64,000 bases of DNA from Candidatus Micrarchaeota archaeon (GCA_021848025.1 JAJZND010000015.1:9310-73309); one strand, 5' to 3'; counted from the first letter of the stretch, positions 10,970-64,000 are shown. Translations and numbers: made by a program. The notes: generated by a model not told the origin, from the sequence alone.

Positions 10970-13720
10970 TCAGCCTTTCCAGTATTTCTTTGTCCTTACA
11001 AATTCCTTTTGGGCATATATAAGGTCTTTTATAAATGCCTTATTCTCCATTTTCATCATCCTGAGTATCCTAGAGGCAGTCTCAAGCCCGATGCCATAAG
11101 TCAGCAATGCAATAACGGCTCTGGAACCATAAGCGCTTACAAGTCCTGAGCAGCGTATCATTTCTCTATAGCAGTCAATCTCAAGCCGTGTCATTTTAGA
11201 GCCCTTGGCCTTTTTCCTCAGCACTTCAGGATAGTTCTCTTTCGAGATCGAAACCATAGCGCTTCCGCATGATGGGCAAACAATGTGTTTTTCCACTTCT
11301 ATGCTGATGTCTTCCCTGAATTCAAAGCCGCAGTATGTGCAGATTAACATCACGCTTCTCGAGTTGAATCTGGTCAGGAAATACTCTATCTCCATGTCCG
11401 GATTGCTTTTCATGGAAAGCAGCTCCCCGTACCTTAAGTAAGGCCTCATTATCTCTATCGAAAGCGGAGAGTTTACATAGCTAAACACTTCAATCTGCAT
11501 ATGCCCGTTTACAATGGAATCTATGAAGCGTAGTGCAGTTTCATAGTCAAAATAATTCTTCTTCAGGTCCCGTATAGTCTCGGCTTCTATCACAGAACCT
11601 CTATAAAAATTAATCAGCTTGGTCGCCATGCTCCTGGTAACTCCTGCCCTCTTCTCAACAACTCCGAAGAGCTTTGCAATCTGTACGAATTTGTACCTAT
11701 ACAGGTCGGACCACTCGGAAAATACCAGGCGCTCCCAGGCAGCGTAATTGGTCCGCATCCCGGCAAGCAGTTTTTTAATGTCTGCCTTGCGCGATCCGCC
11801 ATGCATATCCAGTATTACAGCATAAGGAGATGCCCGCGCATTTACCTTAAATCCAAGATTTGCAGAAATAAAGCCAGAAATTACCTTGGAGATAAATTCA
11901 TTGGCCATGGTTCCCAGCGGCAAATATATTATTGCGTAATCCTCCAATTCTTCTATTACAAGTGTGCCTTCTTTGGGCATGAAGAAGCCCTTCTGGCCCT
12001 GCCTGAAATCAGAGAGCTCATTGGCGGTCCGATCATCCAGATCCGATTTCACATTATCGAAAAGTATCCCGAAGCACCGCCTTGCCACCTTTTCAGAGAC
12101 CGGAATCTCCTCCCCTTCCCACGCGGGCACGACGGCATCAAGATCCACCCCTGGCTCCACAAATACAACGTCCTCGTCTATGCTAACGACCTTCCACGGC
12201 ATGCCTTTTGTTATAAACACCGCGCCTTCATCTATATTGTCATATACAAATTTCTCATCAAGCGTGGATATTATCCTGTTGCTCAGAACATTCTTGACTT
12301 TGAATTTTATGTAATCAGGTATAACTGTTATGTTCTCTATAAAGTAGGATCTCGTTCTTTCCGAAATCCCAATACGGCCGTCACGAACCTTTATAAGGCG
12401 CGCCTGCTCGCCAAATTCAATAACCTTTCTGAAGGCTTCATCACTAAGCGAAGAATATGCAGAGGAGCTTTTTAACAGCTCAAAAGCATCCTTTACCTCT
12501 ATAGATCCATATTCAAGCGCAATGCCGCAGAGCTGATTCATCGCCACATCCAGTGCGTTCTGCTCCCTTCTTTGCATTTCCAGTTCCCCTTTTTCCGCAA
12601 AATAAGCAACAGAAGCGGCCTCAGCAGCGTCAAGCGGTCCTGAGACGATCACCCTGCCTACGGAGGTGCCTCCGCTCCTATGCCCTGACCTGCCCACACG
12701 CTGAATCAGCCTGGCAGCCTGCCTAGGCGATCCGTACTGTATAACCAAATCCACTGCTCCTATATCTATCCCAAGCTCAAGAGAGCTTGTGGCTACTATG
12801 CACCTGAGTTCGCCTTTCTTGAATCTTTCCTCTATAGAGATTCGCTCGTCCTTGTCAAGCGAGCCATGGTGTATGCCTATAGGGCCGAAATGCTCGATAG
12901 AATCAAGGTACATCAGTTTGCTCCCCAAGGATTCCACTATAGACCTCGTATTGGCAAAAAGTATGGTGGCCTTGGAAGCGGCGATGAGGCCTGCTACCTT
13001 CTCAATCCTGGCAACGGATTGTTCATCCAGTGAAAATTTTTCCAGAAGGCTGCGATGCTCCCGCATTGCCTTTACCGGCATCTCTATACTTATAACGGGC
13101 TTTTTCTCCTCTTCAGACCTTATTATTTCGTAATCCTGCTTTCCAAAGAGAAACGTTGCCGCTTCACCGGCATCTCCTACGGTTGCACTCAGGCCGATCC
13201 TCTGAAATTTCCCAGATCTCCTAACCAGCCTCTCGAGGCTCACCGCAAGCTGCGCACCTCTCTTGTTGTAATATAGCTCGTGCACCTCATCAACTATAAC
13301 AACAGCGAGACTCTTCAGGTGCTCCCTGAGCTTGCTTGAGAGCAAGATGCCTTGTATGCTTTCAGGAGTAGTTATCAAAAGTTGCGGAGGGCTCTCTACC
13401 TGCTTTCTCCGCTCCAGCGCACTGGTGTCGCCATGTCTGACCCCTGCTTTTATTCCAGCTTCATCGCAAAGCCACGAAATCCTATTTATAAGGTCTCTGT
13501 TCAAAGACCTGAGCGGAGTGATGTAAATCGCAAATATACCTTTCTTTTCATTTTTCTTTATCCTTTCTATCACCGGAAGGATTGCGGCCTCGGTCTTCCC
13601 GCTTCCGGTAGGCGCAAGTATGAGGCAATTCCTCCCTCTGCGCAGCGCATCAAATGAGAGTTCCTGTATCCTAGTGAACTTCCCGAATCTGCTTAGAAAT
13701 AGGGAAAAAATGTCCTGCAT
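10970..13720 (-). CDS. lhr: Lhr-type large ATP-dependent helicase (DEAD/DEAH, COG1201)
   Basis: 916 aa. Walker A APTGSGKTEA, DEVH box, SAT, QRVGRSGH; C-terminal extension with CxxC...CxxC zinc ribbon. Confidence 0.85.
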   Translation of the reverse strand: MQDIFSLFLSRFGKFTRIQELSFDALRRGRNCLILAPTGSGKTEAAILPVIERIKKNEKKGIFAIYITPLRSLNRDLINRISWLCDEAGIKAGVRHGDTSALERRKQVESPPQLLITTPESIQGILLSSKLREHLKSLAVVIVDEVHELYYNKRGAQLAVSLERLVRRSGKFQRIGLSATVGDAGEAATFLFGKQDYEIIRSEEEKKPVISIEMPVKAMREHRSLLEKFSLDEQSVARIEKVAGLIAASKATILFANTRSIVESLGSKLMYLDSIEHFGPIGIHHGSLDKDERISIEERFKKGELRCIVATSSLELGIDIGAVDLVIQYGSPRQAARLIQRVGRSGHRSGGTSVGRVIVSGPLDAAEAASVAYFAEKGELEMQRREQNALDVAMNQLCGIALEYGSIEVKDAFELLKSSSAYSSLSDEAFRKVIEFGEQARLIKVRDGRIGISERTRSYFIENITVIPDYIKFKVKNVLSNRIISTLDEKFVYDNIDEGAVFITKGMPWKVVSIDEDVVFVEPGVDLDAVVPAWEGEEIPVSEKVARRCFGILFDNVKSDLDDRTANELSDFRQGQKGFFMPKEGTLVIEELEDYAIIYLPLGTMANEFISKVISGFISANLGFKVNARASPYAVILDMHGGSRKADIKKLLAGMRTNYAAWERLVFSEWSDLYRYKFVQIAKLFGVVEKRAGVTRSMATKLINFYRGSVIEAETIRDLKKNYFDYETALRFIDSIVNGHMQIEVFSYVNSPLSIEIMRPYLRYGELLSMKSNPDMEIEYFLTRFNSRSVMLICTYCGFEFREDISIEVEKHIVCPSCGSAMVSISKENYPEVLRKKAKGSKMTRLEIDCYREMIRCSGLVSAYGSRAVIALLTYGIGLETASRILRMMKMENKAFIKDLIYAQKEFVRTKKYWKG

Positions 13721-57158: not shown

Positions 57159-58412
57159 ATGCTAAACATGTTCTTGCCATTGTCAGTAATAGTGCTGGCA
57201 GTATCCTTTATCCTGGTTGCCGTAAGGCAGATAGGAAACATAAAGCTGCAGATCTGGCATGTAATTTTGGGCGGCGCAATAGTCGTGCTACTAACAGGCC
57301 AAATATCAATACCTGCTGCGATATCCTATATTAATCCAACCGTAATAGTCTTCCTTATAGGAATCTTTATCCTTGGAGAAGCGCTAACCAGCAGCGGTTA
57401 CATACAGTATCTTTCCTATAATATATTTAAGCGCTTTAAATCCGTTGACCGTCTAGTTCTCGCAGTAGTCTTCTCAATGGGGGTTGCATCAATGTTCATG
57501 CTTAATGATACCATGGCCATCATCGGCACTCCGGTAGTCATGCTTTTTGCAAAAAGGGAAAAGATAAATCCAAAGCTCATGCTCCTATCCCTAGCATTTG
57601 CAATAACGATAGGCAGTGTTGCAAGCCCGATAGGAAATCCACAGAATTTGCTTGTTGCCTCGAGCGGAATAGTGAAGAAACCCTTCATCGATTTTTTTTC
57701 GACTCTCCTAATACCTACCTTATTGGATCTTCTTGCAGCCTATTTAATTCTTAGGCTGTTCTTCAAAAAAGAGTTTACCAAAAAGCCGCTAATACACGAA
57801 CTCGTCAAGATAAAAGACCCTAAACTTGCAAGACTCTGTAAATTATCCCTTGCTCTGCTTGGAATTTCAATATCCGCTTACGTGGTAATTGAAATATTCA
57901 ACATTTCGCATGGCATAAGTTTTGCATATATCGCAATCATTGCTGCCTTACCAATACTGCTTTTTAGCAACCAGAGAGCCACCATAGTTAAAAATATCGA
58001 CTGGACAACCATAATATTCTTTATAGCCCTCTTTGTACTAGTAGGCAGCGTCTGGCAGTCTGGGTTCCTTCAAAATGTAATAAATAGTCTGCATCTCGAC
58101 ATAAATTCTGTCCCTACAGTGCTGATTGTGAATGTTGTAGGTAGCCAATTCATCTCCAATGTGCCGATGGTGGCTCTATACTTGAAACTGCTTGAGTATA
58201 CTCACTCAACCACTGCCATTGCAATGGCTCTTGCTGCGGGAAGTACCATAGCAGGAAATCTATTCATACTCGGAGCTGCAAGCAATGTAATAATAGTGCA
58301 GATGGCCGAGAAAAGATACAAGAGTTCATTGTCATTCCTTGACTTTGCAAAGATAGGCGCTGTTGTCACTGCAGTCAGCATAATAATATACTGGGCTTTT
58401 CTTACGGTATGA
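57159..58412 (+). CDS. ArsB/NhaD-superfamily anion permease
   Basis: 417 aa polytopic protein with the repeated SPIGNPQNL-type motif. Confidence 0.75.
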   Translation: MLNMFLPLSVIVLAVSFILVAVRQIGNIKLQIWHVILGGAIVVLLTGQISIPAAISYINPTVIVFLIGIFILGEALTSSGYIQYLSYNIFKRFKSVDRLVLAVVFSMGVASMFMLNDTMAIIGTPVVMLFAKREKINPKLMLLSLAFAITIGSVASPIGNPQNLLVASSGIVKKPFIDFFSTLLIPTLLDLLAAYLILRLFFKKEFTKKPLIHELVKIKDPKLARLCKLSLALLGISISAYVVIEIFNISHGISFAYIAIIAALPILLFSNQRATIVKNIDWTTIIFFIALFVLVGSVWQSGFLQNVINSLHLDINSVPTVLIVNVVGSQFISNVPMVALYLKLLEYTHSTTAIAMALAAGSTIAGNLFILGAASNVIIVQMAEKRYKSSLSFLDFAKIGAVVTAVSIIIYWAFLTV

Positions 58413-58471
58413 GTGTCAGAGATGGGCTATTGATCTTGGCAAAGCTTGCTGTAAATTTATCTTGTCCTGTT

Positions 58472-58504
58472 GGAACAGAACCTAAAGCGCATCGCCCGAA
58501 GCAG
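58472..58504. repeat. T-repeat copy 1 (GGAACAGAACCTAAAGCGCATCGCCCGAAGCAG)
   Basis: 31/33 identical to copy 4. Confidence 0.9.
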
Positions 58505-58691
58505 ACGGATAAGTTTTATACGACATTCTGATAATACGTCTTTATATACCAAATAATATACTACGCAACTGAGTCAAAACCTGCGTCACGTTGCGTTATA
58601 ATGCAGAATTCCTGTCATGCGGAAGTTGCCGAGTCAGTTGTAGGTCGGAGCTGTGTGCTTATTTTGCGCGCAGTTTCCTGCATGTTGTGCC

Positions 58692-58741
58692 GATGCACAA
58701 GATGCACCATAGTCACATCTCAGGCAAAGAACCTTTAAATA
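58692..58741. repeat. R-repeat copy 1 plus TTTAAATA box
   Basis: GATGCACAAGATGCACCATAGTCACATCTCAGGCAA...TTTAAATA. 30/36 identical to the copy at 60934. The ORF start at 58763 follows. Confidence 0.8.
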
Positions 58742-58762
58742 AGCTAAATAAAAAGTAATAGC

Positions 58763-58954
58763 ATGCAAAGCTTAGGTATGGGATTGATTGTTGCTGGTGG
58801 TTTCCTATTCGGGATGGGCATTGGACATATAATACTATTTGCCAGTACGTTTGCTACTGTTGGCGTTATTATGATAACCTTAGGGTTAGTGGCCTTATTC
58901 TGGAGACCAGCTTGTAGGGGAAGGACGCAGAAAGGTAGTGGGGGCCGTACTTGA
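58763..58954 (+). CDS. small two-TM membrane protein
   Basis: 63 aa with two hydrophobic helices. Its stop codon lies inside T-repeat copy 2. Confidence 0.45.
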   Translation: MQSLGMGLIVAGGFLFGMGIGHIILFASTFATVGVIMITLGLVALFWRPACRGRTQKGSGGRT

Positions 58955-58973
58955 AGCGCATCGCCCGAAGCAG
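58952..58973. repeat. T-repeat copy 2 (TGAAGCGCATCGCCCGAAGCAG)
   Basis: Identical to the core of copy 4. Followed by AAGTTTTATA, as in copy 1. Confidence 0.9.
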
Positions 58974-59068
58974 GAGAAGTTTTATAAGATATTCCCCAAC
59001 ATATCTCCATATATCTGGTTTGATTCGTAGCAGATGCATAATATTTATTATATCCCCGTGACCAAAAG

Positions 59069-59548
59069 ATGAGTGATAGTATGGCAGCAGATGAGAATGT
59101 CCTGGGATATATAGACAATCTTACAGCATTTGGCATAATAGCACCAATACGAAAGAGCCTTATAATAACAAATAAAAGAATTCTAATTTTGGATGCAAGT
59201 AGCATGTCTTCAACAGCTACGTCTGCGGGCTTTTCATATGTGTTTGGTGTTTTTGGCAGAGGCATGGCAAACCGTATCTCAAAAGATGAGATACAAGAAA
59301 CCACAAAAAAGCTTGCGCAAGCTAACCTTGATGAATTGCTTAATTCAAATACTGACAATGTGGCACTCGATGTCACAAATATAGAGGGTGTGGAGATAAA
59401 CAGAAAGCAGATCCTAATAAAGACGACTCAAAAAACCTTCAAGTACGGGCTATCAAATCCAGATGTCAGGAATAAGAAGAGCGATGTTTATGAAGCATAT
59501 ATTCAAGTGTTGCAAGCTGCTCTGGGTGGCAAGGTAGTGTCAAAGTGA
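59069..59548 (+). CDS. hypothetical protein (possible PH/GRAM-like fold)
   Basis: 159 aa. The segment SLIITNKRILILD resembles bacterial PH-like domains. Assignment is weak. Confidence 0.4.
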   Translation: MSDSMAADENVLGYIDNLTAFGIIAPIRKSLIITNKRILILDASSMSSTATSAGFSYVFGVFGRGMANRISKDEIQETTKKLAQANLDELLNSNTDNVALDVTNIEGVEINRKQILIKTTQKTFKYGLSNPDVRNKKSDVYEAYIQVLQAALGGKVVSK

Positions 59549-59552
59549 ATAG

Positions 59553-59840
59553 ATGAAATTGCCTCATCTTTCCAGCACATCAAAATCAAGCCAAATATGG
59601 ATTATTATATCAGCTATCCCAATACAAATCGGTAGCATAATAAGCATGTTGTATGTACTCTCTTCGGATAATAAGAATAAGGCATTTGCCCTACTGTTTT
59701 TAATCCCTATAATAGGCCCCATAATAGCATATGTTTTGACAGAGCAAAAGGATAAGTACATATCCAGTATGGCAGGTTGGGTCTTTATAGGCCAGATATT
59801 AAGTTACATACTGCTAGATGTGTTTATTGCACTTTATTGA
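59553..59840 (+). CDS. small membrane protein
   Basis: 95 aa with about 3 hydrophobic helices. Starts 4 nt after the upstream gene. Confidence 0.4.
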   Translation: MKLPHLSSTSKSSQIWIIISAIPIQIGSIISMLYVLSSDNKNKAFALLFLIPIIGPIIAYVLTEQKDKYISSMAGWVFIGQILSYILLDVFIALY

Positions 59841-59960
59841 AAGTAATGGAATACACCGTAAGGGAATGCGAACTAGAACAGATCGTTCAAAGCCCAAGAT
59901 GCGCTCTAGGCATATCCCGACATGGGGGATTTTTATATTTTTATTTTTTAATACCTATAG

Positions 59961-60332
59961 GTGCTAAATGTGGTGGATTCAAATACAACAAAGAAATTAC
60001 TTGACAAATATTACGATTTTCTTCGTAAGAAAGAGGATTGGGATTCTCTTTTATCTGATGATTTCTTGCTGACTGGAACTGGGATTAAGGAGAGTAGAGG
60101 TCGGGAAGCTTATAAAGGCAACAATTTCTTTAGGTGCGTATTGGACTTGAAGGTTAAGACTATGATAATAGATGGTGACAGCGCATGTGCAGTAGTGAAC
60201 TACGATTTGATGTCTCCAAAAGGAAATAAATTTAATGTAGATATAGCCGAAATCTGGAAAGTCAGAGGAGGTAAGCTTGCCTCTATAGTAGTATACTTTG
60301 ACACTGTATACTTCCAGAAGATGATGTCCTAA
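59961..60332 (+). CDS. NTF2-like (SnoaL-type) domain protein
   Basis: 123 aa with a GTG start. KKLLDKYYDFLRKKEDWDSLLSDDF...IAEIWKVRGGKLASIVVYFD pattern. Confidence 0.55.
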   Translation: MLNVVDSNTTKKLLDKYYDFLRKKEDWDSLLSDDFLLTGTGIKESRGREAYKGNNFFRCVLDLKVKTMIIDGDSACAVVNYDLMSPKGNKFNVDIAEIWKVRGGKLASIVVYFDTVYFQKMMS

Positions 60333-60343
60333 GCAGGATCTTG

Positions 60344-60366
60344 CCTGAAGCGCATCGCCCGGAGCA
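60344..60366. repeat. T-repeat copy 3 (CCTGAAGCGCATCGCCCGGAGCA)
   Basis: Begins 12 nt after the NTF2-like stop and is directly fused to an R-like segment. Confidence 0.85.
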
Positions 60367-60379
60367 CAACCTGTGCTAC

Positions 60380-60415
60380 AGGCACGTCTCTGACAAGGGG
60401 GGGGGGGTTTAAATA
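60380..60415. repeat. R-like segment, G11 tract and TTTAAATA box
   Basis: AGGCACGTCTCTGACAA, then G x11 (60397-60407), then TTTAAATA. The ORF start at 60438 follows. Confidence 0.6.
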
Positions 60416-60437
60416 ACTCCAGATTAATGGTTAAATT

Positions 60438-60905
60438 GTGAGTTATATGGCTGGTCAGGACTATACGATTACGATTTCGGTAGATAAAAGTCCAGAAGAG
60501 GTCTTTAGGGCCATCAACAATGTTCGGGGATGGTGGTCCGGAGAGGTCACTGGGAGAACAGATAAGCTTGGAGCTGTATGGGAGTACCGCTACAAGGACA
60601 TGCACCGTTCAAAACAAAAGATAACAAAACTTATCCCAGGCAAAAAAGTAGTATGGCACGTGGTGGACAGCTATCTCAGTTTTATAAAAGATAAAGAAGA
60701 ATGGAACGGTACGGATGTTGTATTTGATATAACCAAGAAGGGCGATAAAACGGAATTGCGTTTCACACACGTTGGCCTGGCTCCAAAAATCGAATGCTAC
60801 AATGCTTGTTCAGACGCATGGCGCTTTTATATAAAAAATAGTCTACGTAATCTGATAATGAAGGGTAAAAGGCAGCCAAACCCTAGAGAAAAGAAGGCAA
60901 AGTGA
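60438..60905 (+). CDS. SRPBCC-superfamily protein (AHSA1/START-like)
   Basis: 155 aa. ITISVDKSPEEVFRAINNVRGWW...VVWHV...TELRFTHVGL pattern. Confidence 0.7.
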   Translation: MSYMAGQDYTITISVDKSPEEVFRAINNVRGWWSGEVTGRTDKLGAVWEYRYKDMHRSKQKITKLIPGKKVVWHVVDSYLSFIKDKEEWNGTDVVFDITKKGDKTELRFTHVGLAPKIECYNACSDAWRFYIKNSLRNLIMKGKRQPNPREKKAK

Positions 60906-60933
60906 GTTGAAGTAGCACTTGACGGCCATCGAC

Positions 60934-60969
60934 TGATGCACAAGGTGCGCGTCAGGCACATCTCAGGCA
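60934..60969. repeat. R-repeat copy (GATGCACAAGGTGCGCGTCAGGCACATCTCAGGCAA)
   Basis: Best-preserved copy. It is followed not by a TATA box but by the 3' end of the inverted MazF module. Confidence 0.8.
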
Positions 60970-60993
60970 ATCGGTTTGCATCGGATATGCTAC

Positions 60994-61308
60994 CTAACCT
61001 TTCAACGATCCGAGTTTCTTAACGAAGTCCTCAAAAACAAGATGTTTCTTCTCGGGACTTAATTGGTAGACTGTTTTTATTATTGCACCATCTGTGATTG
61101 TGAATATATAATTCAACTTTATAACGCTGTCCTGAGCTGCTCCCTCGCTTGTAGAGATGCGTATCCCTTTCATCTTAAGGTTTGTAGTTATCCCGGCTAT
61201 GACTATGTTGCCTAGCTCCTCGAATAGCACCAATGCGGGTCTGATCTTTGAGCCTTCGCTATCTGCAAATTGTACCCTTGTTATTACCACATCTCCGGCT
61301 TTAGGCAT
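60994..61308 (-). CDS. mazF: PemK/MazF-like toxin
   Basis: 104 aa. PKAGDVVITRVQFADSEGSKIRPALVL...AGITTN pattern. 8-nt overlap with the upstream small gene. Confidence 0.7.
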   Translation of the reverse strand: MPKAGDVVITRVQFADSEGSKIRPALVLFEELGNIVIAGITTNLKMKGIRISTSEGAAQDSVIKLNYIFTITDGAIIKTVYQLSPEKKHLVFEDFVKKLGSLKG

Positions 61309-61522
61309 GCTCCCACGCCGAGTAATCGCCTTCCCCCCATAGCTCTTTCATCTTGGTCTTCTGGGCTTCCTGAACAAACTTATCGAACTCTTTCATCTCC
61401 TTGGCGCTTTCTATAAGACCTAAGATTATCTCACTATAAGTCTCTCTGGGGTATTTCTTGATCTGCTTCAGTGCCTTAACCACTGACTTGCTTAGTTGTA
61501 TTGTAGTTATTTCCTCAGACAT
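61301..61522 (-). CDS. putative antitoxin (RHH/DUF217-like)
   Basis: 73 aa. TTIQLSKSVVKALKQIKKYPRETYSEIILGLI resembles archaeal VapB/DUF217-type antitoxins. Confidence 0.55.
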   Translation of the reverse strand: MSEEITTIQLSKSVVKALKQIKKYPRETYSEIILGLIESAKEMKEFDKFVQEAQKTKMKELWGEGDYSAWEHA

Positions 61523-61539
61523 TATATAACACCTATAGT

Positions 61540-61556
61540 TAGTATATAATATACTA
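61540..61556. promoter_or_regulatory. 17-bp perfect palindrome TAGTATAT-A-ATATACTA upstream of the antitoxin-toxin operon
   Basis: Lies 18-34 nt upstream of the antitoxin ATG. AT-rich, so it could be both the TATA region and an autoregulatory operator. Confidence 0.4.
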
Positions 61557-61625
61557 TATATTTAAGCCTTTGCATTGGTGTTACTGAGGACTACATTGGG
61601 CAATGAACCATCCTTGATTCGCACC

Positions 61626-61665
61626 GAGCGCAAGATGTGTGAGGCACATCCCCATATCTATAAAT
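61626..61665. repeat. R-repeat copy plus TATAAAT box
   Basis: GAGCGCAAGATGTGTGAGGCACATCCCCA...CTATAAAT. Shares the 13-mer AGGCACATCCCCA with the copy at 63497. Confidence 0.7.
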
Positions 61666-61728
61666 GAAAACTTGTAAGCAATTATCGGCGAGCATACGAG
61701 AAGCTCAGAGAAGGGTCTTATCGCAAAA

Positions 61729-62135
61729 GTGCAAATTGAGATTAATGCATCTATAGAGAGAGTTTGGGACGCTCTAATTGACCCAAAAGCAATCAAACAG
61801 TACATGCTTGGTGCTGATGCAGTATCGGAATGGAAGGAGGGTAGCCCCATCATATGGAGAGAGGAACGAAACGGCAGAAAATATGAGGATAAAGGAAAGA
61901 TACTAAAGCTAGCTCCTAGACACCTCAGTAGATACGGCCATTTCAGCCCACTAACAGGATTACCTGATGCTCCTTAAAATTACCATATAGTCACTGTGGA
62001 ATTGGCCGCCAGAGGATCACACATTAGTGTCTCTGTCCCAAACAAATAACCATACTCGAGAGGCACTGCAGCACAATGAGCAAGGATGAAAATGATGCTT
62101 GATGGGCTTAAGAAGTATCTGGAGCAGAACCTGAA
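61729..62135 (+). pseudogene. SRPBCC-superfamily pseudogene (in-frame TAA plus two frame changes)
   Basis: ...IERVWDALIDPKAIKQY...LTGLPDAP-TAA(61975)-NYHIVTVELAARGSHISVS / frame change near 62035 / SQTNNHTREALQHNEQG / frame change near 62087 / KMMLDGLKKYLEQN. Confidence 0.7.
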
Positions 62136-62153
62136 GCGCATCGCCCGAAGCAG
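62121..62153. repeat. T-repeat copy 4, continuous with the tRNA-Asn fragment
   Basis: GGAGCAGAACCTGAAGCGCATCGCCCGAAGCAG. Positions 62142-62153 are the last 12 nt of the tRNA (minus strand). Confidence 0.9.
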
Positions 62154-62196
62154 GGATCGAACCTGCGACTTCATGGTTAACAGCCACGCACTCTAC
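62142..62196 (-). pseudogene. 5'-truncated tRNA-Asn (GTT): 3' 55 nt only (candidate att site)
   Basis: Minus strand: GTAGAGTG-CGTGG-CTGTTAA-CCATG-AAGTC-GCAGG-TTCGATC-CCTGC-TTCGGGC-G. The 5' acceptor strand GCCCGAA is not present upstream. Confidence 0.75.
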
Positions 62197-62780
62197 TGTT
62201 TAAGTTCTTGAAGAACCCTCAGTTTTGTTTTCTTATTATAATGTTTAAGATATGACGTAAGTTTTTCCTTGTCTATCCTGCGCCTTAGTGCTTTTAGAAC
62301 GTCCCTGCGCAGATAGTGATTAAAGTAGATAAAGTCTATAAATGTCTTCTCATAGTCTGACACAGGTATCCATAACCCTCCACTTTGTACAGAATCATAA
62401 CCGAAAAACAGATCTCTGCGTATGTGAAGTACGCTGTAGTTGCTTCCCCCGAACTTCCTAATCCCGCGCCTCACATTATTTGGGGTTATTATTATTGGAT
62501 TGGTACCTTGCTCCCACAAGCCCCTGATGGTGAGCGCATTCTCTAGGCCATAATAAAAGGGTCGAAAAGCAAAACCTACTACAGTTATCTCATCATGGAA
62601 TGTATAAACACCCCTACTTATCCTTAATATTTCCCCACTGCTGATCAGGTAGTTTATCAGCCTCTTGAGATAGGCAGAACTTATGCCTTTCAGACCCAGA
62701 ACTGCCTTTAGCTCATGAATTGTAAAGATTGGGGATTTTAGATCATTGAAATGGCTTCTTATATAGCCTACGTATTTCAT
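62193..62780 (-). CDS. abiEi: AbiEi-like antitoxin / wHTH regulator
   Basis: 195 aa. N-terminal wHTH with LISSGEILRISRGVYTF (the RG-x-Y hallmark). Overlaps the upstream nucleotidyltransferase gene by 4 nt. Confidence 0.7.
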   Translation of the reverse strand: MKYVGYIRSHFNDLKSPIFTIHELKAVLGLKGISSAYLKRLINYLISSGEILRISRGVYTFHDEITVVGFAFRPFYYGLENALTIRGLWEQGTNPIIITPNNVRRGIRKFGGSNYSVLHIRRDLFFGYDSVQSGGLWIPVSDYEKTFIDFIYFNHYLRRDVLKALRRRIDKEKLTSYLKHYNKKTKLRVLQELKQ

Positions 62781-63433
62781 GACAGCCTACCTCTTATTTG
62801 CATAAGCATTGACTGGAGAGATGGAACAGGACCATCGTATATTAGAGAAGCAAGATCTTCCTCATTTACAGGTGGAGGTATTTTATTCAGGAAGTCAGAT
62901 ACTTCCTTTGCTATCTTCTCATCTCTTTCTATATAGCTGCTCAATATGTATATGTCATAAATATCACGTATGAAGCGCCTGTCTCTATAAGCTGCAATCT
63001 TTTCTGCAAGCAGATCATTTGCAGGTATGGAGATAATATCGCTATATGTCCCATCCACTCTTTCGAAGCGCATAGCTATTGGTTTCAGTTCCTTTGCAAA
63101 ATGGCTTATCTCAACTTTTAGGTATGTGTCACCCAAAGAAAACCCTATAAACATAAGATTTCCAGTGTCTTTTACCTTTTCTAGTTTAATACCCTGCTCT
63201 TCTGCGGCCGATTTCAGTTTATCTCTAGTATCTTTCAGGCTTATTTTAGAATCCAGATAGGCATCTATGTCATTAGAGAATCGGTTTCCTGCAAAGCATC
63301 TCCAGATCACAGTACCCCCATGCAGGACCATGTTGCTGTAGGACCTATACAGGATATCTACTGCGTAATCTTGGAATGTTGCAATTTCCAGATATTCTCT
63401 TTTCTTTAATCTTTTTATTATAGGAAGGCGCAA
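62777..63433 (-). CDS. abiEii: AbiEii/DUF1814 nucleotidyltransferase toxin
   Basis: 218 aa. LHGGTVIWRCFAGNRFSNDIDAYL matches the GG-x...R-x-S-x-DID nucleotidyltransferase motif of the family. Confidence 0.75.
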   Translation of the reverse strand: MRLPIIKRLKKREYLEIATFQDYAVDILYRSYSNMVLHGGTVIWRCFAGNRFSNDIDAYLDSKISLKDTRDKLKSAAEEQGIKLEKVKDTGNLMFIGFSLGDTYLKVEISHFAKELKPIAMRFERVDGTYSDIISIPANDLLAEKIAAYRDRRFIRDIYDIYILSSYIERDEKIAKEVSDFLNKIPPPVNEEDLASLIYDGPVPSLQSMLMQIRGRLS

Positions 63434-63438
63434 TTAAT

Positions 63439-63470
63439 TACCAAAGTTACATTATAATGTAACTTTGGTA
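63439..63470. promoter_or_regulatory. 32-bp perfect palindrome TACCAAAGTTACATTATAATGTAACTTTGGTA upstream of the abiE operon
   Basis: Its reverse complement equals itself (checked base by base). It begins 6 nt upstream of the abiEii ATG. Confidence 0.6.
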
Positions 63471-63496
63471 TTTTTATATCTATCTGACAGCCCTCC

Positions 63497-63546
63497 GGAG
63501 TGCAAGATGGGCGTCAGGCACATCCCCAACAAGGAGGATTTAAATA
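63497..63546. repeat. R-repeat copy plus TTTAAATA box
   Basis: GGAGTGCAAGATGGGCGTCAGGCACATCCCCAACAAGG...ATTTAAATA. Shares the 14-mer GCGTCAGGCACATC with the copy at 60934. The ORF start at 63580 follows. Confidence 0.8.
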
Positions 63547-63579
63547 ATTTGAATCTTGTATAGCTAAAAAGGTGAGAAT

Positions 63580-64000
63580 ATGCTACAAACCACTCCATTT
63601 CTATTATTTGACGGTGACTGCGCCGAAGCGATGACCTTTTACCACAAATGCTTTGGAGGAGAGCTGACGTTGACAAAACTGGCAGACACGCCTATGAAAA
63701 GCATGTTCCCCCCCAGAAAAGCATAACAGGATCATCAATGCACACATTAAAAATGGGGCGATCGATATATCTGCCACCGACTGGATGGCGGCTCCGCAAT
63801 ATGAACCCATACTTGGAGAGATGTACGCCGTATTTGTTACCGGCAGCTACGATGAAGTGAAAGCAGTATTTGGCAGGCTTGCAGTTGGAGCAGAAAAGGA
63901 TAGGTTTCAGGAACTGCACCAAATGCCGTTTGGCATGTACGGGCAGATGTATGATAAATTCCACAGACACTGGATATTCATGGCCGCCAAAAATAATAAC
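63580..64000 (+). pseudogene. VOC/PhnB-like (glyoxalase-fold) gene with a frame change in a C7 tract; 3' end beyond window
   Basis: MLQTTPFLLFDGDCAEAMTFYHKCFGGELTLTKLADTPMKSMFPP, then the C7 run (63708-63714), then in another frame EKHNRIINAHIKNGAIDISATDW...MPFGMYGQMYDKFHRHWIF. Confidence 0.7.

Follow-up and report, generated by a model that had tools for sequence, protein, structure and literature searches.

A tRNA-Asn-Anchored Array of Small Gene Cassettes with Putative Promoters, Probably Assembled by Serial Site-Specific Integration, in a Micrarchaeota Genome

Introduction

At the end of a 64,000-nucleotide stretch of a Candidatus Micrarchaeota genome (the window, by which the whole stretch analysed is meant), small accessory genes are stacked beside tRNA-Asn, which raises the question of how such a stack was assembled. 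A sequence-only reading had described units bounded by two short repeat families, T and R, and had proposed that a single tRNA-Asn underwent serial site-specific integration or, alternatively, that a cassette array with a portable promoter makes use of a recombination site derived from the tRNA. Both proposals were supported, and they are two aspects of one process. The island (58463–64000) runs on to an intact tRNA-Asn(GTT) gene 38 nt beyond the window end, and is likely to be an integration hotspot that arose as site-specific recombination recurred at the 3′ end of this tRNA. The favoured reading, serial site-specific integration of small, promoter-carrying, integrase-less cassettes, is considered quite probable. 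This integron-like form at tRNA-Asn, with each unit bounded by a common ~75-base site, is undescribed for Micrarchaeota: full-text literature searching found no description of the organisation in Micrarchaeota/DPANN, in agreement with the earlier impression that none was known for archaea.

Anatomy of the Recombination Site

The T core, AAGCGCATCGCCCGRAGCA, was found as exact matches at 58485, 58954, 60348 and 62134, all on the + strand, compared with 0.04 matches expected from shuffles (0 of 100 shuffles reached four). As described previously, the copies are 469, 1394 and 1786 nt apart, and copies 1 and 4 are 94% identical. No further T was found in the 64 kb with a profile built from 32 T copies. 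The earlier list of sites lacked a decayed T at 60908, which immediately precedes the R at 60931. The claim that T derives from the tRNA was confirmed, as T consists of O, the last 11–12 nt of tRNA-Asn, and X, its 13-nt 3′ flank. The crossover core O is CGCCCGAAGCA[G] and the conserved left arm X is CCTGAAGCGCAT. R consists of a right arm Y, CAAGATGYGCGTCAGGCACATCTCCGACAAGG, and a TATA box, and its profile identified six copies (O starts at 58688, 59885, 60357, 60931, 61621 and 63493), all on the + strand, with none in the other 58 kb. The R copies described previously are therefore real, with that at 59885 having been missed, but their status as a separate family did not stand, as every R aligns as a composite X-O-Y-TATA of ~75 nt (T.R) with the X-O half intact or decayed. 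Judged by this alignment, R is the right half of a ~75-nt unit whose left half is T, intact or decayed, and R as an independent family was rejected. The idea that copy 3, or R, is a deletion derivative of the tRNA was not borne out either, since the similarity of Y to the tRNA body, tested beyond the shared 11 nt, was no better than shuffled (p = 0.16–0.9).

The TATA-like box TTTAAATAA occurs at 58734, 60408 and 63539 and is followed by + strand starts at 58763, 60438 and 63580, as had been stated. The box-to-start distance is 22–38 nt in most cassettes; in the window's five, three measure 29–31 nt and the others 70 and about 40 nt. A + strand start lies within 22–70 nt downstream in 13 of 25 T.R copies, and a 7-5-7 palindrome within Y (GATGTGC-N5-GCACATC) stands immediately upstream of the TATA box. 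Sequence rather than structure is conserved in the T.R palindromes: pairing in the two helices tested (67.6% and 87%) was no better than in column shuffles, with no covariation, and single-strand folding was unremarkable (z = +0.1 to −2.7). The strictest conservation was found in the 24-nt X-O common to the tRNA, not in the promoter part. A minihelix that terminates in the tRNA acceptor strand can be drawn from the − strand of T.R.

The position of T, 0–12 nt past the stops of three + strand genes (58954, 60332 and 60905, the last with the decayed T) and, for T4, continuous with the end of the decayed 61729 gene, could suggest a generic transcription terminator or RNA-processing signal, and the minihelix a small structured RNA. 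Such readings are highly improbable. T is absent from the window's other roughly 50 genes and lacks a T-run; it is confined to this locus and, in about 22 other genomes, to the 3′ side of tRNA-Asn, instead of trailing core genes. Additionally, the only Rfam matches are to the tRNA fragment described below, and neither covariation nor folding supports a structured RNA. The terminator/RNA reading is thus already contradicted by the restriction of T and its lack of structure.

Cassettes of the Island

The left (core) boundary of the island is an ArsB/CitMHS-type transporter gene (57159–58412, + strand; Pfam ArsB/CitMHS), an orthologue of which (76% DNA identity) borders a different array in contig L001. 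The outermost att copy, T1 (X and O, 58463–58503, +; exact core at 58485–58503, T-profile E = 7e-10), runs into a non-R arm (58504–58530) that carries a TTTTATA box, and continues as GCAG+Z, like the left junctions of the L142 and L145 integrase elements. R1 (58676–58742, +; R-profile E = 8e-12, X-O alignment) has a decayed X-O, an intact Y and TTTAAATAA at 58734–58742, and leads a 63-aa membrane protein cassette gene (58763–58954, +) starting 29 nt past the start of the TATA-like box. This protein matched no Pfam family, and in L015 and L110 ORFs of similar size with near-identical upstream/5′ sequence are likewise flanked by R upstream and T downstream. The stop of the 63-aa gene falls within T2 (X-O, 58934–58972, +; exact core, T profile), after which come a Z-type arm carrying a TTTTATA box (58973–58994) and two cargo ORFs (59069–59840, +; ORF calling), one of 159 aa and one, for a membrane protein, of 95 aa; neither matched a Pfam or NCBIfam family. 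A further R copy (59871–59945, +; R-profile E = 1.6e-12), with a strongly decayed X-O, Y and a T-rich TATA-like box, precedes a SnoaL_2 (NTF2-like) cassette gene (59961–60332, +; Pfam SnoaL_2, E = 1.6e-7). The complete composite site, T3.R (60335–60416, +; T core, T and R profiles, alignment), comprises X-O (60335–60366), Y (60367–60396), a G11 run (60397–60407; 9–12 nt in contigs from other samples) and TTTAAATAA (60408–60416), and stands before an SRPBCC/AHSA1 cassette gene (60438–60905, +; Pfam AHSA1).

The next composite, Tx.R (60908–60975, +; R profile, alignment), combines a decayed X-O with a variant of Y whose end is CAATCGG; the variant travels with MazEF and precedes MazF also in L033 and L046. 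Here it adjoins a MazF (PemK) toxin gene with an upstream 73-aa antitoxin-like gene (60994–61522, −; Pfam PemK_toxin), a module with its own promoter and an orientation opposite to that of the cassettes. The stretch common to the window and the variant contigs L001 and L005 is 60974–61639, site to site. R3 (61609–61667, +; decayed X-O, Y, TATAAA box; R profile, alignment) is followed by a second SRPBCC/AHSA1 gene (SRPBCC2, 61729–62133, +), which alignment with L013 and L145 showed to be a pseudogene: it contains an in-frame stop and two small deletions and has lost its stop codon, and its L013 counterpart is an intact 168-aa gene. T4 (X-O, 62116–62152, +; exact core, T profile) is continuous with a displaced tRNA-Asn(GTT) fragment (62142–62197, −), as had been claimed. 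The corresponding Rfam tRNA match (40 bits, 62142–62214, −) has an unpaired 5′ acceptor strand and corresponds to a 3′ fragment about 55 nt long, with 96.9% identity to the intact tRNA-Asn over 64 nt by blast (2 mismatches). The stop codon of the AbiEi-like gene falls within this fragment; the gene belongs to an AbiE-type module (62193–63433, −; Pfam AbiEii, AbiEi_4) encoding a 218-aa AbiEii and then the 195-aa AbiEi-like protein. A comparable 53-nt tRNA fragment adjoins a Thoeris-like element in L145, and a second element class (AbiE here, Thoeris-like in L145) marks its entry by a 53–55-nt tRNA fragment. R4 (63480–63547, +; the top R-profile match, E = 8e-16), with a decayed X-O, Y and TTTAAATAA at 63539–63547, leads a frameshifted VOC/PhnB-like gene (63580–64000, +; Pfam Glyoxalase / 3-dmu-9_3-mt on its 48-aa first ORF) that leaves the window; in matching contigs, 14 nt separate its end from T5 and the intact tRNA-Asn(GTT). 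This tRNA gene, whose presence past 64000 had been anticipated, was found with a fifth T copy at window-equivalent 64038–64111(−), as read from the matching contigs (L004, 16880–16953; L001, 8670–8743). The tRNA-Met and tRNA-Lys genes in the window are without such repeats.

The earlier assignment of the cargo was confirmed by Pfam for SnoaL_2, the two AHSA1/SRPBCC genes, the Glyoxalase/PhnB-like fragment, PemK/MazF and AbiEii/AbiEi. Two of the five + strand cargo genes downstream of an R site are pseudogenes and the X-O half is decayed in half of the window's composite sites; the majority of units in the window are probably no longer mobile. The same array was found in all contigs with exactly matching proteins, L005 excepted. 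In the variant contigs L001 and L005, identity switches reciprocally inside MazEF, and these contigs may be assembly chimeras.

Distribution among Related Genomes

The same sites were found by pattern scan in about 22 Micrarchaeota-labelled genome bins of other species and in 2 Marsarchaeota-labelled ones. In these relatives O is followed by either tRNA or Y, and the sites always lie on the 3′ side of tRNA-Asn, in a single orientation and spaced a median of 632 nt apart; the conserved genes c0 and c1 are adjacent. The island is not uniform among relatives, as cassette content differs with breakpoints at the sites, and cassettes for SRPBCC, SnoaL, MazEF and the 63-aa membrane protein have different neighbours in different genomes. 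L013 and L096 also have the SnoaL_2 cassette flanked by R and T (76% and 64% aa identity, respectively), the SRPBCC/AHSA1 gene at 60438 is 82% identical in L013 and L040, being the tRNA-adjacent cassette in the latter, and MazF is 91% identical in L033. The SRPBCC2 cassette is conserved from O to the next O across L145, L013 and the window (96.2% / 88.7% identity), whereas its flanks are unrelated on both sides (20–30%), with left and right neighbours differing in all three genomes. CopA-YHS-PadR modules of about 3.7 kb also occupy the site. Cassette proteins are 76–91% identical, compared with 23–42% for the adjacent core protein c0 and 43–57% for c1, and this far greater divergence of the core proteins indicates horizontal cassette spread.

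Exchange of this kind could also be produced by homologous recombination after DNA uptake, with T.R serving as a portable promoter/operator, arrays being rearranged between the 75-nt repeats and no dedicated integrase acting on them. The sequence-conserved, structure-free palindromes fit protein-binding sites, 13 of 25 T.R copies have a + strand start at a suitable distance, and an integrase is absent nearby. Nevertheless, this shuffling is judged unlikely, as in every genome the sites keep to a single locus and orientation, conservation is strictest in the tRNA-shared 24 nt and not in the promoter part, cassette homology stops exactly at O, and O is precisely the stretch duplicated by integrase elements at the same tRNA.

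Integrase Elements and Proposed Mechanism

No integrase homologue was found in the window by tblastn, as had been noted before, and none was called in about 8.7 kb of matching contig past the window (L001; about 4.4 kb in L004). The tyrosine recombinase expected near the tRNA was found in related genomes, where an Xer-like integrase gene lies beside the same tRNA-Asn. In L083, a 407-aa protein adjoining tRNA-Asn matches PF00589 (1.4e-19), and its homologues (61–68% identity) all occur in the order c1-c0-tRNA-Asn-Int. The integrase, of about 400 aa with a C-terminal L40e-like zinc ribbon, is closest to archaeal XerA (PDB 4a8e, E = 2.8e-11), with 102 bits on the XerA model versus a cutoff of 220. 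The integrase elements are flanked by 12–16-nt direct repeats of O: that of L142 (11.1 kb) lies between copies of the 16-nt repeat TCATCGCCCGAAGCAG, and that of L145 (5.9 kb), in tandem with a T.R-SRPBCC2-T cassette, between CGCCCGATGCAG repeats with X at the left. In L144, the L145 element is located at the intact tRNA. As the elements with readable ends have the arms P1 and Z, not X and Y, we infer integrase action on X-O-Y from the shared core only.

Large elements (5.9 and 11.1 kb with integrase, and the CopA-YHS-PadR modules of about 3.7 kb) thus occupy the site, and the island could consist only of remnants of larger integrase-bearing elements, each having entered once at the tRNA and been cut down by deletion, with R copies alike because the elements form one family with a conserved attP arm, and with no mobility at the level of the cassette. 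The decay of two of the five R-led + strand cargo genes and of half of the window's X-O cores fits such an origin, as does the failure to find a circular or excised form, or an empty site, of the window species (real hits numbered 0 in a viral-contig scan and 1 in a JGI scan). Accumulated wreckage would be expected to have ragged ends and integrase fragments, whereas single intact genes with fixed O-to-O borders and varied neighbours and genomes were observed, the median unit is just 632 nt and no integrase remnant was detected in the window. This origin is possible, albeit doubtful.

Under the favoured reading of serial cassette integration, the mobile unit would be [Y-TATA-gene(s)-X-O], carrying X-O-Y when circularised. 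Recombination of the circle's X-O-Y with X-O-tRNA, or with a resident X-O-Y, would insert the unit, regenerate the tRNA and leave X-O-Y between adjacent units. The enzyme that would move small cassettes individually is most likely the Xer-like tyrosine integrase encoded beside the same tRNA in related genomes; as it is absent at the window locus, it would act in trans or would have been lost. Y-TATA would supply each + strand cassette with its own promoter, and the MazEF and AbiE modules are likely to lend the array stability.

Comparison with Known Systems

Tandem-integration islands at tRNA/tmRNA genes, such as those of the Islander type (PMC4383910), Dehalococcoides ssrA (PMC3146451) and the Prochlorococcus islands remodelled by tycheposons (10.1101/2020.12.28.424599), are similarly bordered on one side by an intact tRNA, contain scattered direct repeats of the tRNA 3′ end and have tyrosine integrases specific for one tRNA, with newer elements pushing older ones outward while remnants and integrase-less segments pile up. 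The units described here are far smaller, often comprising one gene, with a median of about 0.6 kb; a conserved 75-nt composite with a promoter forms the repeated junction, the tRNA contributes a core of only 11–12 nt, the integrase is Xer-like with a zinc ribbon, a replication module is absent and the host is a DPANN archaeon.

Membership of the classical integrons, or of the CALINs (attC clusters without an integrase) surveyed in archaea by Ghaly et al. 2022 (PMC9668308), is given next to no probability, despite a clear resemblance. In both systems promoter-proximal, mostly single-gene cassettes without their own recombinase stand in one orientation with a recombination site (here ~75 nt) between all of them, one primary insertion site is used, toxin-antitoxin cassettes occur inside and arrays without an adjacent integrase are common. 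Nevertheless, the integrase is not of the IntI type (45 bits versus a cutoff of 265 on the integron-integrase model), the site, quite opposite to attC, is kept in sequence and shows no covariation of structure, the 3′ end of tRNA-Asn takes the place of attI as primary site, and each cassette has its own TATA box in place of a common Pc promoter. The archaeal survey mentions neither Micrarchaeota nor a tRNA link. Integron/CALIN membership is thus already contradicted by integrase score, site conservation and tRNA anchor.

CIMEs, or cis-mobilizable elements, and accretion are said to have been described originally by Pavlovic 2004 and Bellanger 2011. As reviewed for integrative elements of streptococci (PMC5704250), CIMEs are att-bounded segments without recombination genes, in tandem with integrase elements at one site, and the cassette and integrase element of L145 are arranged exactly so. 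CIMEs differ in being many-kb decayed bacterial ICEs moved by conjugation after accretion, whereas here single-gene units share a promoter-bearing arm in an archaeon without a known transfer apparatus. Archaeal tRNA-gene integrative elements with SSV-type and pNOB8-type integrases, and 'gene capture', were reportedly treated by She et al. 2001. In these and in the SNJ2 family of archaeal integrative elements (PMC5861418), tyrosine integrases likewise target tRNA genes and degenerate elements keep tRNA-derived repeat borders. Unlike in SSV/pNOB8-type elements, no split integrase gene was evident at the junctions here on limited inspection; the present integrase is closest to archaeal XerA, with an L40e-like zinc ribbon, and the SSV/pNOB8/SNJ2 systems are not known to include arrays of single-gene units. 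The array is best read as a variant of tRNA-anchored islands, whose general principle is already known, and is analogous to an integron without being a member of the integron family.

Repeat Sites in the Island

Exact matches to the 19-nt core of the T motif, AAGCGCATCGCCCGRAGCA, were found at 58485, 58954, 60348 and 62134, all on the plus strand, against an expectation of 0.04 matches in dinucleotide shuffles of the window. A repeat finder reproduced the T spacings of the sequence-only reading, gave 94% identity between its copies 1 and 4, and also detected a decayed fifth member at 60908. The R profile gave six matches, with the core O starting at 58688, 59885, 60357, 60931, 61621 and 63493, all on the plus strand and all inside the island, and nothing significant in the other 58 kb of the window; the T profile likewise gave no significant match in the window outside the island. 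Profile and repeat searches thus confirmed and extended the two repeat families first described. With nine sites and the tRNA, this array was the largest among those examined, and no similar arrays were present at tRNA-Met and tRNA-Lys in the window. An Rfam tRNA match (40 bits) at 62142–62214 on the minus strand, with its 5' acceptor strand unpaired, was identified as a 3' fragment of about 55 nt carrying the GTT anticodon. According to Pfam, the cargo of the island includes SnoaL_2, two AHSA1/SRPBCC genes, a Glyoxalase/PhnB-like fragment, PemK/MazF and AbiEii/AbiEi.

The tRNA-Asn Gene and Its Flank

Contigs encoding exactly identical proteins were retrieved to extend the window, and three of them (L004, L006 and L007) were 99.9% identical to it. 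The intact tRNA-Asn(GTT) anticipated past 64000 was found on the minus strand at window-equivalent positions 64038–64111, 38 nt beyond the window end, followed by c0 (233 aa), c1 (278 aa, apparently secreted), an aminotransferase, methionine aminopeptidase and DNA polymerase B. A fifth T copy, likewise beyond the window end, sits at the 3' end of this tRNA gene, and T thus consists of the last 11–12 nt of the tRNA and the adjoining 3' flank. The pair c0 and c1 was observed at L004 17004–18552 (window-equivalent ~64162–65710) and at 14 other loci. In Micrarchaeota loci these genes (~230 and ~280 aa) always lie on the 5' side of tRNA-Asn. The N-terminus of c1 resembles a signal sequence and the protein is rich in N-x-S/T motifs, whereas c0 diverges strongly from one species to another (23–42% identity). 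Neither protein belongs to a Pfam or NCBIfam family, and these family searches gave no sign that c0 is a hidden recombinase. No integrase was present among the called genes of the matching contigs, over ~8.7 kb past the window end in L001 and ~4.4 kb in L004, and no integrase homologue was detected in the window by tblastn with a Micrarchaeota integrase as the sole probe.

Anatomy of the Composite Site

The core O is CGCCCGAAGCA[G], and the left arm X ends in CCTGAAGCGCAT. When the R copies of the window and of other genomes were aligned with their left flanks, each was preceded by X-O, intact or mutated, and the repeated unit is therefore a single composite of ~75 nt (T.R, or X-O-Y-TATA), where Y is the right arm. 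The composite reads CCTGAAGCGCATC, GCCCGAAGCA and CAAGATGYGCGTCAGGCACATCTCCGACAAGGARGATTTAAATA in succession, and the TATA-like box of some cassette sites is TTTAAATA. The sites with T alone consist of X-O followed by the tRNA, by a tRNA fragment or by another arm, Z. In intact sites the 24-nt X-O is near-invariant across species, with a variable Y and unrelated left flanks, and this near-invariance fits a core that is obliged to match between recombination partners. The X-O half is decayed in about half of the composite sites, and likewise in half of those in the window. An origin by deletion from the tRNA had been proposed for the third T copy (60348) together with the R copy that follows it; Y aligned locally to the tRNA body and promoter no better than shuffles did (p = 0.16–0.9), and this origin is not supported.

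Short direct and inverted repeats of GCRCATC occur within T.R. Among 23 distinct copies, the mean column identity was 72%, with 16 columns nearly invariant. Folding of T.R as single-stranded DNA gave z values of +0.1 to −2.7, with −2.7 for the consensus. Pairing and covariation of the X/X' helix and of the GATGTGC/GCACATC hairpin over the 23 copies were no better than in column shuffles, and a third mini-hairpin, judged by eye, showed all four base combinations at their expected frequencies. A structured RNA or an attC-like hairpin was rejected, as Rfam was silent except for the tRNA fragment, folding was unremarkable and no excess covariation was found. To judge from the alignments, the repeats look like protein-binding sequences rather than selected structure.

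At the right end of every composite site stands a TATA-like box of its own. In 13 of 25 sites a plus-strand start codon lies 22–70 nt past this box, mostly at 29–38 nt (22–38 nt covers most cassette starts), and the remaining sites stand before minus-strand modules; Y-TATA is a putative active promoter. In the SRPBCC cassette the TTTAAATAA box is directly preceded by a homopolymeric G run (60397–60407), which occupies the would-be BRE position. Its length is 11 in the window and L004, 10 in L005, 9 in L006 and 12 in L007, which could be real promoter-tuning variation or homopolymer assembly noise. Directly 5' of the AbiEii start, a 19+19-nt palindrome without spacer (AATTACCAAAGTTACATTA / TAATGTAACTTTGGTATTT, 95% complementary, 63436–63473) is probably an operator of the AbiE module.

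Distribution across Genomes

The pattern GAAGCGCATCSCCMGRAGC was scanned in one genome per species and, besides scattered bacterial chance matches, was found in at least about 22 bins labelled Candidatus Micrarchaeota and at least two labelled Marsarchaeota. The sequence past O in these genomes was an intact tRNA-Asn, Y or, occasionally, another arm. Every T and R site in them is located 3' of tRNA-Asn, in a single orientation, and the segments between sites (n = 24) have a median length of 632 nt (range 194–4137 nt). Some loci, for example L051, L074 and L112, present X-O-tRNA with no array within the 8-kb stretch examined. The bins labelled Candidatus Marsarchaeota (L008 and L112) have the tRNA-Asn-c0-c1 locus and T sites like those of the Micrarchaeota bins, and the label recurs among several integrase and enolase homologues. 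This points either to wrong labels or contamination of the bins or to an element family that crosses phyla. The enolase of the window itself is closest, at 61–66% identity, to named Micrarchaeia/Micrarchaeaceae proteins, which together with the pattern scan makes a Micrarchaeota (DPANN) archaeon the most likely source. The O-Y junction pattern gave no match in viral contigs and two in JGI metagenomes, one real (L133, with a left arm other than X) and one by chance. No circular contig was found among those examined.

Look-ups of the exact transporter, AbiEi, SRPBCC and MazF proteins returned the same array everywhere except in L005 and L001, two contigs from the same sample (ERZ27237063) that are reciprocal hybrids. 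In mismatch maps L005 equals the window up to ~61297 and differs beyond, whereas L001 differs before ~61358 and is nearly identical thereafter. An explanation as clean strain variants with breakpoints at R sites was abandoned, since identity switches reciprocally inside MazEF (~61297–61360). The two contigs may be chimeras produced in assembly, joined at a MazEF module that two co-occurring species have in common; alternatively, they are real recombinants. The MazEF module (60974–61639) lies exactly between two sites and is common to genomes with very different flanks. Because they are possibly chimeric, L001 and L005 were used solely as evidence that this module is shared. In L001 the stretch from the transporter orthologue to the first T.R site contains a C-terminal remnant of a dihydrofolate-reductase-like (RibD_C-type) gene, recognised by eye (12060–12140, minus strand) and apparently another decayed cassette.

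Cassettes Shared between Genomes

Several cassettes recur with the same genes and the same kinds of sites but different neighbours. The SRPBCC cassette of 60438 was found in the window, L013, L040 (next to the tRNA) and L050; SnoaL in the window, L013 and L096; a 63-aa membrane protein in the window, L015 and L110; MazF in the window, L001, L033 and L046; and CopA-YHS-PadR in 11 loci. Cassette proteins of the window genome are 76–91% identical to those of L013, L040 and L033, whereas in the same comparison the adjacent core proteins share 23–42% (c0) and 43–57% (c1). The limits were clearest for the second SRPBCC cassette, whose copies in L145, L013 and the window were aligned together with their flanks. 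Between the O-Y junction and the following O, identity was 96.2% and 88.7%, and on either side it dropped to 20–30%. In L145, L013 and the window, respectively, its left neighbours are the region downstream of an AbiE module, the SnoaL cassette and MazE, and its right neighbours are an integrase element, the intact tRNA and the tRNA fragment with AbiE. The window copy is a pseudogene, one of two among the five plus-strand cargo genes that follow an R site in the window, where most units are probably fixed.

A P-type ATPase (CopA), YHS and PadR genes were observed just 3' of tRNA-Asn in L005 (14628–17357), L010, L026, L033, L071, L100 and others, with the unit of L033 lying between a T.R site and the tRNA. 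In most of the 11 loci their identities are 78–90% (CopA 78–88%, PadR 80–90%), against 25–45% for adjacent core proteins, and the set looks like a mobile copper-resistance unit of acid-mine Micrarchaeota. Larger elements to the right of T.R in L027 (5924–6949) and L096 (5201–6238), in coordinates with T on the plus strand, encode a ~340-aa fusion in which a winged helix at the N-terminus (MarR/ArsR, E = 2.6e-8) is joined to PCNA-like N- and C-terminal domains (E ~1e-4). Such an architecture is unusual, and the protein possibly serves the replication or partition of an integrated plasmid or virus.

A Zinc-Ribbon Integrase and Its Elements

The recombinase sought at tRNA-Asn was encountered in related genomes, where a tyrosine recombinase lies beside this gene in L083, L126, L128, L132, L142 and L144. 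The L083 protein, directly adjacent to tRNA-Asn, has 407 aa, a PF00589 domain (1.4e-19) and a C-terminal zinc ribbon, and its family comprises 1,958 proteins at E <= 1e-10, the named members being from Micrarchaeota or Marsarchaeota. Among solved structures, Pyrococcus XerA (4a8e, E = 2.8e-11) is nearest to the L083 protein. The latter scores 102 bits against the XerA equivalog (cutoff 220) and 45 bits against the NCBIfam integron-integrase model (cutoff 265), and with 407 aa, a zinc ribbon and a position at element ends beside tRNA-Asn it differs from archaeal XerA (~280–330 aa, no extra domains). The homologues examined, at 61–68% identity, show the order c1-c0-tRNA-Asn-integrase (L126, L128, L132, L141, L142 and L144); L132 comes from one of the samples containing the window strain. 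The exception is L145, where the integrase element stands in tandem behind a displaced tRNA fragment.

Both ends could be read for two of the elements. An 11.1-kb element in L142/L143 lies between 16-nt direct repeats TCATCGCCCGAAGCAG, one of which is at the tRNA 3' end. The order in L145, in window orientation, is T.R, the second SRPBCC gene, X-O, a 5.9-kb element (MutH-like, Vsr, Dcm, HATPase and integrase genes), the arm P1, O, a 53-nt tRNA fragment and Thoeris-like ThsB genes. The same element is found at the intact tRNA in L144, with 99.95% identity over 5,589 nt. As integrase elements are flanked by O repeats, this family exchanges strands within the last 12 nt of tRNA-Asn, that is, within O. 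Cassettes and integrase elements thus occur stacked in tandem at tRNA-Asn; the cassette units share the 11–12-nt core with the ends of the integrase elements, but their arms X and Y differ from P1 and Z. The tRNA fragments of 53–55 nt, at the T copy by AbiE in the window (62116–62152) and by the Thoeris-like genes in L145, indicate a second element class with a longer att. For the elements of L126, L128 and L132, the 8–10 kb examined contained no far end with a second copy of att. A 5,573-nt JGI contig with the L083 integrase, considered as a candidate circle, proved to be the integrated form.

The X arm carries a copy of the tRNA T-arm sequence (GGGGTATAACCTG), and P1 repeats the T-arm sequence GGGGATTGAACCTGC 20–33 nt outside the tRNA (L126, L128, L132, L083 and L144). 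Present in both kinds of element, these repeats are candidate binding sites of the integrase.

The element at L144 2948–6944 and L145 4365–8361 carries a defence-like set (GHKL-type HATPase, Dcm methylase, Vsr and MutH-like nuclease), and behind the 53-nt tRNA fragment of L145 another element has inserted, which bears two ThsB-TIR (Thoeris-like) genes. From its gene content, the tRNA-Asn site appears to act as a defence island.

Proposed Mechanism

Serial site-specific integration at O is the most economical reading of the locus, and the interpretation proposed in the sequence-only reading is supported as a whole. A unit of the form [Y-TATA-gene-X-O] would circularise and thereby create X-O-Y; the recombination partner of this circle would be either X-O-tRNA or any composite site already in place; and the insertion would regenerate the tRNA and leave X-O-Y between units, which matches the observed architecture. 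We infer that single cassettes circularise and that the zinc-ribbon integrase, whose own elements have the arms P1 and Z, acts on X-O-Y.

Little is understood of the ways in which DPANN archaea, host-dependent and with tiny genomes, gain and trade accessory genes. The locus offers a concrete, apparently lineage-wide route of gene exchange with a single tRNA gene as its docking point. The cassette pool common to the species includes SRPBCC, SnoaL, VOC, copper ATPase/PadR, MazEF, AbiE and Thoeris-like genes, and the 24-nt core is kept identical or nearly so across species in which neighbouring proteins are only 23–57% identical. Even on the conservative reading, the arrays preserve a clear natural history of serial integration in a group of uncultivated archaea.

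Comparison with Known Systems

The array functionally resembles an integron, yet it departs from one on every defining point. Instead of an IntI-type integrase with its additional domain, there is an integrase that falls far short of the integron model (45 bits, cutoff 265), and none in the window. The attC sites of integrons are imperfect palindromes conserved in structure, whereas T.R is conserved in sequence and its helices are no better than shuffles. Integron cassettes are promoterless and share a common Pc beside attI; here each composite site has its own TATA-like box and would supply a promoter to its cassette. Neither Micrarchaeota nor an anchor at a tRNA appears in a survey of integrons in archaea (PMC9668308).

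A more far-reaching reading, which we would sooner doubt than assert while taking it seriously, is that Micrarchaeota hold an independently arisen functional analogue of the integron. Promoter-bearing, integrase-less cassettes with a ~75-bp, sequence-conserved, double-stranded X-O-Y would be captured, stacked and exchanged between species at the last 12 nt of tRNA-Asn by a trans-acting, Xer-like zinc-ribbon integrase. If so, the array would be a dedicated platform by which reduced genomes gain stress, metal-resistance and defence genes, a compact system with a defined 12-nt target and ordinary double-stranded att recognition in place of the folded attC. If the cassettes are moved singly by this integrase, integron logic would have been invented a second time, independently.

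It is well known that islands at tRNA and tmRNA genes accrete in tandem, with the intact tRNA gene at one end and its 3' fragments repeated, as in the islands found by Islander (PMC4383910) and the ssrA islands of Dehalococcoides (PMC3146451), and Prochlorococcus islands are remodelled by tycheposons (10.1101/2020.12.28.424599). The locus shares with the Islander type an intact tRNA with displaced copies (four more copies of the last 11–12 nt with flank, and one 55-nt fragment) and a variable content beside conserved flanks, with c0-c1 kept in 15 loci whose arrays differ or are absent. An integrase inside the island is missing in the window and present in L083, L126, L128, L132, L142, L144 and L145. 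CIMEs are integrase-less segments bounded by att sites (PMC5704250); the cassettes share a core with the ends of integrase elements and stand in tandem with one in L145, and their arms are X and Y as opposed to P1 and Z. No description of this type of locus was found in the full texts searched, which cover the literature incompletely, so that this absence is weak evidence. The locus is classified as a variant of the tRNA-anchored tandem integration island, unusual for its very small, often single-gene units, its conserved promoter-carrying junction and its 11–12-nt tRNA-derived core, as well as for its spread over many Micrarchaeota species and its Xer-like zinc-ribbon integrase.
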